From: Stylophora pistillata
Lineage: Eukaryota
Direction: 5' to 3'
Assembly (NCBI RefSeq): GCF_002571385.2
Contig: NW_019218072.1
Span: 63,074 to 127,073, forward strand
Length of the DNA stretch: 64,000 nt
Under the pieces are notes generated by a model. It made no database searches, was not told the origin of the DNA, and was given only the letters and a program-made list of their open reading frames with translations. The translations under genes were made by a program, and so were the position numbers. Position 1 is the first letter of the stretch; every line of letters begins with the position of its first letter. Below are positions 46,691 to 49,304 of this stretch, one piece after another.

Positions 46691-48402
46691 AAGAGTTTTC
46701 ACGGCCTTTTACTCTCAGATGTAAGCTTCTACATATAGTCTTAAATTGCTTGAAAAATAATCGTTATCCTCAAGCTGAAAATTATATCAGGTTGGTAAAG
46801 ATTTTATTTCCTCGAGTAAAAGTTATCTGAAAGCGAGATTGGTATGTTTATAATCCGTCCCTAACCCTGAAAATTCGACAGCCAGTTAATGCCTGTACGT
46901 TATGATTTAACTATTTTCGTTAAATTTCGCTTGCTTCCCCAATTGTGCTTAGATAATAGTTCATCCAAAGGCCTGTGGGGAAAAACCAATTCTACTGGCG
47001 CCGTTTCACCCGGCAGAGCCGCGTGTCTGGTTCGGCATTGTAAAAGTGCATGCGCCGTTAACATTTTGGTGTTTAAAATAATTCGCTACCTTTTCAAAAT
47101 GTTTTTCGACAACACCGATTTTTTACTATAGGATACTTGAAGTAATTTTTTTTGAGACAGATAGCGTCCCTTAATGAGAGCGAAACAGAAACATTGATCG
47201 GAGATCTAAAGATCAGTGGAAAAACTGTTGTCGATCTCATCACATTCGTGTTAACTTTTTGTTTTGATGTTTTTATTCATCTCTCTGTTTGATTGTTTAA
47301 GGTGTTTATTTGTAGGAAGTATTTTTGATTGTTTTGAAAGGATTTTAAATTTTCTGTAAAGGGAATCGAAGTTACGAATCCTTTTATAAAAATTTCCAGA
47401 AAATCTGACAAATTTCAATCCAATTCAAAATTTACTAAAAATAGCCCAAAAGTGATTACTAAAAGTTTCATCTGGCCATCAAACTACTGCATGTGTCCTT
47501 TGTTTTTTCGATTCTTTGAAACTTGGCGCGCCACTAAAATTTAATGGCACGCTCCAAAATCTTCAAAATATAGAACAGATTCAGGTTGATATCAGTATTG
47601 TGAAATGAAAGCAGATTTGTTTAAATGTAATAATGAATATGAGATGTGGTGATCAACTTCCCTATTCTTTGATCCCCAACACAATTAAATAAACATGTTT
47701 CTCTCATTTTACAGCTGGCCTCCAAAATATGGTAACCGTAGCATCTTCCAAATGCTCTCAATCATAGCATAATGCGGCTTGATTATCATTTTTGTACTTG
47801 TGTTCCCATTATTAAACGCCTCTAGCATTTTTTCAGTTCCTTTATGTGAACCGGCACAAAACGAATATAATGTACTTGATGAAAAAAGCTCTTTACTTAT
47901 TAAACTGCAGCTCTGTTCTCTTCTTCATTTATTTTTCTCGGATTTCATGATAATTCTCGTCTTATGAAACCATGGCACCACTGAGGAATCAGACTATTCT
48001 ATGGCCAAAAAAGAAACAAATTGAAGCTAGAGTTATTATTTGTACTTAAAATATATAATTATTATTGATCCGAATTGAAACTCTCAGGCTGTGTAGAAAG
48101 ACAGAATCCATCCTATGGTAATTTTGTCTTCAATTCCCCCTTTATTTTCTGATTTTTTTTTTTCGTTCTTTTATCATCAGAAATGAGGACGTAAAATCTC
48201 TGCGAAAGTTTGTTCCTTGAAAATTTCCACCAATTTATTACCATGGTGTGGGAGAACAGGAAAACTGAAAATTCCATTTTTAAAGTGGCATATCTGACAC
48301 TTATCGCCGGACCAGTAAATCTAAATAGTCGATGCCATACACAATCTGCTAAAACTGCGTTTTATGAACGCCCATCACGATGTCTTGAACAGTCACTAAT
48401 TC

Positions 48403-49044
48403 GTATGATGTACGATCCTTCGCAGTAGATAGCGCTATTTAATGCAATAGCGAAAATCAGACCTGAAAAAAATCAGGCCTGTACGGGATTCGAACCACTG
48501 ACCTCTGCGATATTAGTGCAGCGCTCTACCAATTGAGCTAACAAGCCAACTGGGAGCAGGCCGTTAAGTTGATTCGTAATAAACCCGTGATGATAAATCA
48601 GATACAATGAATATATGAAGTTCATATATTTTGAACTGCGGTATTAAATACGTATGATGTACGATCATGATGCGTATTCATGAATATAAATATGATCATG
48701 AATACGTATGATGTACGATCATGCGTATGATCGTACATCGTACGTATTTAATACCGCAGTTCAAAACATATGAACTTTATATATTCATTGTATCTGATTT
48801 ATCATCACGGGTTTATTACGAATCAACTTAACGGCCCGCTCCCAGTTGGCTTGTTAGCTCAATTGGTAGAGCGCTGCACTAGTATCGCAGAGGTCAGTGG
48901 TTCAAATCCCGTACAGGCCTGATTTTTTTCAGGTCTGATTTTCGCTATTGCATAAATAGCGCTATCTACTGCGAAGGATCGTACATCATACGTATTTAAT
49001 ACCGCGGTTCAAAATATATGAACTTCATATATTCATTATATCTG
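48403..49044. mobile_element. Palindromic insertion of a tRNA(Thr-like)-derived element (248-bp monomer): inverted copy plus a >1-mer forward copy, 12-bp TSD
   Basis: Arms 48402-48668 and 48727-48992 are near-perfect reverse complements. tRNA-like cores at 48475-48547 (-) and 48848-48920 (+). 69-bp direct repeat at 48729-48797 and 48977-49045. TSD AGTCACTAATTC at 48391-48402 and 49045-49056. Confidence 0.87.
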
Positions 49045-49304
49045 AGTCACTAATTCTTTTAAAATGATCAGGGGTACCCACCATCTCTTCATATTTGGGA
49101 CATTTTCACGGAAAACGTGTGCATCAATGTTTTCCACTACGCCCTTCATTTTACCCCGGTTTACCCAGACTGCTCCAATGTACTTGGCAGAGGAGGGTCT
49201 GGGCAAGAAAACATACCTGAAAAAGCTGTATTAGTTAATCATTATATGCAAATTTTGTCAGTTTTCCTTTGCTTTGATGTTTTTCTAGCCTGTCAAACCA
49301 CAAG

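Follow-up and report, generated by a model that had tools for sequence, protein, structure and literature searches.

The palindrome at positions 48391-49056 of the window (the whole 64,000-nucleotide stretch of Stylophora pistillata contig NW_019218072.1 analysed here) is an ordinary, typical copy of a large family of tRNA-bearing 248-bp repeats. With a probability of roughly 0.8, this repeat is a non-autonomous element whose RNA is reverse-transcribed and integrated by the reverse transcriptase (RT)-endonuclease of another element, of the Penelope-like element (PLE) type.

Architecture of the palindrome

The insertion is delimited by an exact 12-bp direct repeat, AGTCACTAATTC, located at 48391-48402 and 49045-49056 by a repeat comparison of the window. 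Between the two repeats lie an inverted arm of 266 bp, 58 nt of filler and a forward arm of 319 bp. A 12-mer repeated at both junctions would arise by chance with a probability of ~1e-5, allowing for 100 offsets, in support of the proposed target-site duplication (TSD). The inverted arms pair at 48439-48668/48727-48956 and 48398-48441/48953-48996, blocks that are split by one indel, lie 58 nt apart and are identical at 260 of 267 aligned positions (48402-48668 versus 48727-48992). When the 248-bp unit is numbered from the first tRNA base (phase 1), the left arm extends from phase 130 to 145 via one full turn (1.07 units), and the right arm from 130 to 198 (1.28 units). The left arm had been described as an inverted full monomer; the inversion is correct, while the length is not exactly one unit. 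The description of the right arm as a forward ~1.3-mer with a 69-bp terminal redundancy agrees with the repetition of phases 130-198 (48598-48666/48977-49045), and the tRNA-like core is, as originally predicted, internal to both arms. The features of the locus are as follows.

48391-48402, plus strand: left TSD, 12 bp, direct repeat whose last base is common with the element end (TSDs in the family are mostly 12-14 bp)
48403-48666, minus strand: inverted arm covering phases 130-248 followed by 1-145 (1.07 units); terminates outside at site 1, the short end, which has no tail
48475-48547, minus strand: left-arm tRNA-like core carrying A and B boxes; its anticodon is AAT through a private change
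48548-48588, minus strand: left-arm segment upstream of the core, phases 208-248, predicted to pair with the core
48667-48728, no strand: junction filler, comprising a 22-nt copy of the left-arm inner end and short self-templated pieces
48729-49045, plus strand: forward arm covering phases 130-248 followed by 1-198 (1.28 units); terminates outside at site 2, the long end
48807-48847, plus strand: right-arm segment upstream of the core, phases 208-248, predicted to pair with the core
48848-48920, plus strand: right-arm tRNA-like core, anticodon AGT, T-stem with two mismatches
48923-48929, plus strand: run of seven T's just after the core, resembling a Pol III terminator in sequence; mirrored at 48466-48472 on the minus strand
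48993-49045, plus strand: 'tail', the 53 nt that separate site 1 from site 2, at the right end only
49045-49056, plus strand: right TSD, direct repeat
49305-49640, plus strand: neighbouring intronless Roadblock/LC7 open reading frame (ORF), 111 amino acids, outside the element

The inner ends of both arms fall at phase 130 of the unit, at a shared GATC palindrome, and the filler is therefore strictly 62 nt (48667-48728) rather than the 58 nt of the scrambled spacer first proposed. Its self-templated nature was confirmed, as it contains one 22-nt copy of the inner end of the left arm (48701-48722 = 48647-48668), the rest consisting of pieces of ≤9 nt. Similar filler joins the arms of another insertion, L443. 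Such filler would fit iterative templated end-joining, an established process. MicroRNA matches over the filler were far below cut-offs, reflecting the palindrome, and were discarded. Two public runs yield contigs that span the right junction (X5, 49016-49634; X1, 49033-49634). No empty-site allele was observed in these runs, in which the left flank of the insertion has almost no cover, and no paralogous empty site was present within the fetched loci. The TSD-bounded arms, together with the geometry of the family described below, support the proposed origin of the palindrome in a single insertion event.

A large family of dispersed arrays

A pattern from the 248-bp unit that includes nine bases upstream of the tRNA has at least 7,196 exact matches in the 398-Mb genome, and a pattern starting at the tRNA has 7,522; the control gave 0. 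Copies were mapped at 39 top-scoring loci, at 43 consecutive loci on contigs C1-C3, in the window and at two incidental loci. The family consists of dispersed head-to-tail arrays of 1 to ~16 units, often back-to-back, and comprises three subfamilies, A (248 bp), B1 (245 bp) and B2 (247 bp). Permuted, tandem and inverted copies were indeed found: among 52 position-sampled clusters, some of which are pieces of a single gapped insertion, 29 were back-to-back (divergent), 23 direct and none convergent, and the only convergent case (L044) came from the top-scoring set. The palindrome is thus not exceptional.

In five loci (L040, L042, L048, L060 and L066) subfamily variants occur in the terminal units, while the middle units carry the majority sequence; the assembler has visibly filled the middles of long arrays with consensus. 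Array lengths above a few units are consequently uncertain, and the homogeneity within arrays (0.75 versus 2.2 differences) was dropped as evidence because the middle units of long arrays are imputed. An older relative of the unit, with a tRNA that scores better, at 63 bits, and has a GGT anticodon, occurs at three loci of this genome (L350, L351 and L382). At a practical level, the family generates thousands of false tRNA gene calls, as well as palindromes, in coral assemblies.

One arm ends at each of two fixed sites

Gap-free outer ends are strongly clustered, with 120 of 132 falling in two intervals that make up 16% of the unit (73 at phases 140-156 and 47 at phases 183-205), and define two fixed sites ~50 nt apart. 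Both outer ends are gap-free in 40 inversions, 29 of which have a called TSD, mostly of 12-14 bp. In 27 of these 29 TSD-bounded inversions there is one arm end per site (p ~7e-9), the remaining two each having one off-site end, and none is a same-site pair. The 11 inversions without a called TSD include three same-site pairs. Gap-free direct (non-inverted) copies had a TSD in only 4 of 23 cases. Both counts weigh against the PLE reading. The inner ends are variable, although 7 of the 23 gap-free cases show the same phase in both arms (p=0.0007), often at small palindromes. Sorted by inner phase, six of the 29 inversions are symmetric apart from the tail (including 48391-49056), 19 are unequal and in four further cases the inner ends differ by one whole unit.

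The two arms of an insertion are also related in sequence. Arms of the same insertion differ on average at 1.6 common variants (n=9), compared with 5.3 for cross-locus pairs (n=77), and a rare variant is common to both arms in 5 of 9 insertions versus 8 of 77 cross-locus pairs. At 48391-49056 the variant G136A is present in all four passes; it has 16 exact matches in the genome, none in tandem, and, with 12 of the 14 matches outside the window fetched, was found in both arms of 3 of 4 other inversions that cover the site. Counter-examples, with arms that differ, are the G136A inversion L447 and L107. A rare variant common to both arms points to one RNA template, and the shared haplotypes fit either one RNA that is read repeatedly (a circle, a terminally redundant RNA or a uniform multimer) or, equally well, fold-back of a single cDNA. 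The rule that one arm derives from each start site, with both from one template lineage, binds any model of Penelope integration.

Further families follow the same rule

A metagenome scan of other coral contigs revealed family O, with a 249-bp unit that is 74% identical to subfamily A, at 121 or more loci (104 distinct). Its outer ends peak at the same phases as those of A; an upstream inverted arm is present at 46 of these loci and a downstream one at none. All seven of its TSD-bounded inversions are mixed (one end per site), a count in which some loci represent the same copy in several samples.

Family S, the second tRNA family in the window (42652-42920 and 44183-44313), has a 279-bp unit with at least 366 matches and resembles the 248-bp unit in the tRNA part only, which is called as Ser(AGA). 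In the copies studied (L383-L432 and the window) it forms arrays and back-to-back insertions with TSDs of 11-13 bp, and its ends lie ~25 nt apart, at ~83-90 and 104-112, the short end being at the T-run after the tRNA. Among ten TSD-bounded inversions seven are clearly mixed, two are unclear, one is off-site and none is same-site. These data bear out the view that a second, unrelated tRNA family shares the mobilization route.

The resident Penelope-like elements

Pfam domain searches identified several young RT+GIY-YIG families in the genome, in one of which the copies have long open frames that are 99-100% identical. The Penelope-type geometry that had been attributed to the palindrome is displayed by these autonomous elements themselves: one short and one long end were present in all nine back-to-back pairs in which the ends were read by eye (L150, L168, L290, L293, L305, L307, L464, L463/468 and L478/479; pairs with gaps, microsatellite ends or truncations were left out), with duplications of ~11-14 bp compared with the 12-14 bp of the tRNA-bearing family. 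As the repeat matches the PLEs of this genome in its ends and in the marks left at the target, it likely borrows a PLE enzyme.

The partner was sought among 150 scored candidates of the 1,590 recovered with GIY-YIG; no N-terminal-endonuclease (Naiad-type) family was seen among those scored. Neither the search by GIY-YIG family nor one with a single PLE protein identified a PLE that shares an end with the unit. The PLE tails that were read are ~35 and 85-95 nt, neither of which matches the ~50-nt tail of the 248-bp unit. Outside its tRNA, the unit matches none of 89 PLE 3' regions significantly (best E 0.12) and, apart from resident copies of the family, none of 120 PLE loci, which represent a partial sample of the PLEs. 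One apparent chimera (L476:3738-3845), in which 100 nt from an older subfamily lie directly against the long end of a young PLE, more likely reflects insertion of the PLE into an old copy, its other end lying in a gap.

Proposed mechanism of integration

We infer a sequence of enzymatic steps that would explain these insertions. An RNA spanning more than one unit (a multimer, a terminally redundant RNA or a circle) would be produced, and a dimeric GIY-YIG/RT enzyme would nick both strands ~12 bp apart in AT-rich DNA. A single RNA would serve as template for both 3' ends, with priming at site 1 (phase ~145-147) for one and at site 2 (~193-198) for the other, and both cDNAs would run upstream, in the case of 48391-49056 to GATC at phase 130. 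The same-sense cDNA ends may then be joined via palindromic microhomology and templated filler, giving a palindrome with a tail at one end. In the available sections of PMC11167929, a purified PLE protein from anole, for which a dimer is predicted, nicks both strands and extends them, RT begins at either of two internal positions in the RNA that mark the limits of the tail, and the hammerhead is not needed in vitro. An inverted 5'-truncated copy and a tail at one end are hallmarks of PLEs in the accessible parts of PMC8557442 and PMC3846280, the latter of which also shows that pLTR sequence suffices in trans.

Within PLE-type mobilization, dual priming is favoured by about two to one. The competing possibility, unlikely yet the most credible of the alternatives, is that the same type of enzyme makes one cDNA, which self-primes at a small palindrome (here GATC) and is copied back, while resolution by the endonuclease at the other site determines where the second end falls. 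Fold-back of this kind gives a direct account of the shared haplotypes and coincident inner ends, as well as of the six inversions, among them 48391-49056, that are symmetric apart from the tail, and self-priming at junction palindromes is proposed for Penelope in the portion of PMC3846280 at hand. However, the 19 inversions with unequal inner phases and the four that differ by a whole unit mean that a later deletion would be needed in most cases, and in vitro, according to the same sections of PMC11167929, both strands are extended from both RNA sites.

Explanations that dispense with a PLE enzyme fare considerably worse. Spread at the DNA level, by a rolling-circle element (Helitron- or Replitron-like) or as a dispersed minisatellite propagated by repair, is improbable. 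Tandem arrays with a fixed end would be expected of such an element, and Replitrons make variable TSDs (PMC9977147, in part), but the family has two alternative fixed ends that are paired one each, back-to-back only, a TSD of the size found for the PLEs of the genome, and RNA-level hairpins that covary between subfamilies (98:114).

Slightly less probable still is a conventional SINE with a tRNA head that is moved by a LINE, the inversion arising through L1-type twin priming. The A and B boxes in the core, the LINE-type RT frames in the window, and a TSD length and 5' truncation that fit target-primed reverse transcription in general are all compatible with this route. The tRNA is, however, internal: the 7,522 matches from the tRNA start compare with 7,196 that carry the nine upstream bases, and of 11 extra matches inspected eight have unit sequence upstream that carries substitutions, and three begin ≤5 nt from the tRNA start at inversion junctions. 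These counts and inspected matches replaced an earlier measure, the proportion of inner ends near phase 1 (1/69), which was biased by the selecting pattern. Thus the copies are not conventional head-to-tail SINE monomers, since in nearly every copy the last bases of a preceding unit lead directly into the tRNA and there is no poly(A) or simple-repeat tail. Furthermore, both outer ends are fixed and the arms overlap, which is not the pattern of twin priming.

That the palindrome is an artefact of a short-read assembly can be largely dismissed: the assembler did homogenize the middle units of long arrays, and read-contig support covers the right junction only, yet the TSD is exact, the arms carry private differences, the right junction occurs in two runs and the same geometry is found in independent assemblies of other corals.

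The tRNA-like core

The core contains A and B boxes but is not a functional tRNA gene, as its cloverleaf is not intact and it has no matching host isotype. It scores 49 bits, compared with 66-76 for host tRNAs, its T-stem has two mismatches and its acceptor has a predicted pairing probability of 0 in the multimer context. The original designation 'tRNA(Thr-like)' holds for the anticodon only; in an incomplete sample of 40 distinct tRNA sequences, the nearest outside the family is Cys (54/73 identical to the older family O), followed by Lys (52) and Thr(AGT) (50), and no parent was identified among the host tRNAs retrieved.

A stretch of 40-45 nt immediately upstream of the tRNA is predicted, in all of A, B1, B2, O and S, to pair with strands of the D-arm, variable region and T-arm, and the predicted acceptor-stem pairing falls to 0 in a multimer. 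As this upstream segment would abolish the cloverleaf, the tRNA-derived sequence likely acts in the DNA, as a promoter, rather than as a tRNA. In support of the predicted fold, the pair G51-C227 of O becomes U51-A226 in A, a change that also breaks the T-stem, and hairpin 97-113 (pair 98:114) covaries between subfamilies. Against it, acceptor-stem pair 7:66 also changes compensatorily between A and O. The upstream pairing is also modest in statistical terms, having z values of -1.8 to -2.4, with equally strong pairing in 1 of 35 host tRNA flanks, and in family S other segments of the sequence are predicted to pair as well as the upstream one.

No hammerhead core motif was found on either strand of the four unit consensuses or of family S, although the same motif does turn up in PLE 3' regions, and the unit has no match to an Rfam ribozyme. 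Hammerhead-like motifs are present in most of the PLE families studied in this genome. Processing into monomers by RNase P is a minor possibility at most, the T-stem (families A and B) and the acceptor stem (young S) being damaged. The seven T's after each core should stop Pol III, such that the divergent units would give ~80-nt RNAs and not the long hairpin originally envisaged, which would need read-through by another polymerase; the T7 run also counts against the integration model above, which calls for a long RNA template. A speculative proposal, to which we give little weight, is that at least two unrelated 250-280-nt tRNA-derived RNAs are ribozyme-free coral 'Penelope SINEs', in which the anti-tRNA segment closes a rod that brings the first and last bases together; the RNA would be circularized, and a Penelope dimer would read round it, priming at two sites on the same circle.

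Genomic context

The suggested placement of the palindrome in a 5'-UTR intron of the roadblock gene is conjectural. Upstream of the Roadblock/LC7 ORF there is a good, acceptor-like AG at 49287-49288, which is crossed by an unspliced, low-depth contig from one RNA run (49206-49634); no splice joint near the ORF appears among the best-supported joints listed. Read depth in the poly(A) runs is derived from contigs and says nothing on expression. Read-through RNA of the palindrome would be expected to fold into a near-perfect hairpin.

Elsewhere the window contains a long minisatellite of ~27-nt units (39747-46040), in which the block 39747-40860 is inverted relative to the rest, two more inverted-repeat pairs of 94-142 bp (16086-16729 and 62914-63334), and long frames with RVT_1 domains that are probably LINE remnants (4535-6784 and 19967-21775). 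An apparently conventional SINE, which begins with a tRNA-like head and ends in a short tail of the (ACTT) type, is located at 11478-11770 and provides a contrast case.

Comparison with known systems

Judged by its structure, the family does not belong to the SINE2, TRIM or retrozyme classes. It shares with SINE2 elements the tRNA-derived A and B boxes and non-autonomous retroposition, but has no fixed tRNA head or LINE-like tail and instead displays permuted multimers and two internal ends. TRIM and TRIMp3 elements have LTR-type ends and TSDs of 4-6 bp; in the family the TSDs are 12-14 bp and the inner ends variable. In the TRIMp3 elements Helenus, Ajax and Cassandra a promoter derived from a small RNA is likewise located inside the terminal repeat rather than at the 5' end, and the fold no longer works as a tRNA; these are LTR-type passengers in the available text of PMC10886601, in contrast to the 12-14-bp TSDs, 5' truncation and inversions reported here.

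Animal non-LTR retrozymes, including those of Acropora, resemble the family in several respects. According to the parts available of PMC7229834 and bioRxiv 10.64898/2026.07.22.740005, they are ~250-bp dispersed tandem units that are AT-rich, have a self-paired fold and larger TSDs, are proposed PLE passengers and have demonstrated circular RNA. Dispersed tandem units of 200-400 bp are also present in the family. Retrozymes, however, are defined in these texts by a type I hammerhead in each unit, in place of which the family has a tRNA core. The CMITEs of Acropora are, from the sections at hand of PMC2872659, unrelated DNA elements without a tRNA, and were rejected as relatives.

Non-autonomous Chlamys elements such as MRC1 are, similarly, non-coding PLE passengers with multicopy head-to-tail insertions, but differ in resembling the 3' end of the partner, with no tRNA core mentioned in the accessible portion of PMC8557442. 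Known non-autonomous PLEs usually resemble the end of their partner, and the absence of such a resemblance to the PLEs sampled here counts against the view that the family is a PLE passenger. A tRNA-bearing PLE passenger was not described in the literature searched, a scope outside which lie Repbase, Dfam, subscription journals and supplements, and the family may already be catalogued; the available portions of PMC9977147, PMC2872659, PMC5786205, PMC2888827 and PMC12070523 do not describe it. Nematostella has >17,000 mostly clustered tRNA-like loci (PMC2888827, in part), which by analogy could include such elements.

A close parallel is provided by the endonuclease-bearing PLEs (Penelope/Poseidon, Neptune and Naiad), which in the parts available of PMC11167929, PMC8557442 and PMC3846280 share with the family partial tandems, 5' truncation, a 5'-side inverted copy, two start sites within the RNA, a tail that is confined to one end, insertion into AT-rich DNA and a TSD. 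The family is distinguished by its lack of an ORF and hammerhead, by its tRNA-bearing 248-mer, which is unlike any pLTR sampled, and by a ~50-nt tail. How Penelope elements integrate is not yet settled, and these families are of value because they offer insertions of a cis element of 250 nt that have arisen naturally, in their thousands; the unit represents a minimal RNA for reconstitution of Penelope integration. The families would show that the SINE principle, capture of a tRNA promoter, applies to a third class of enzyme besides those of LINEs and LTR elements.
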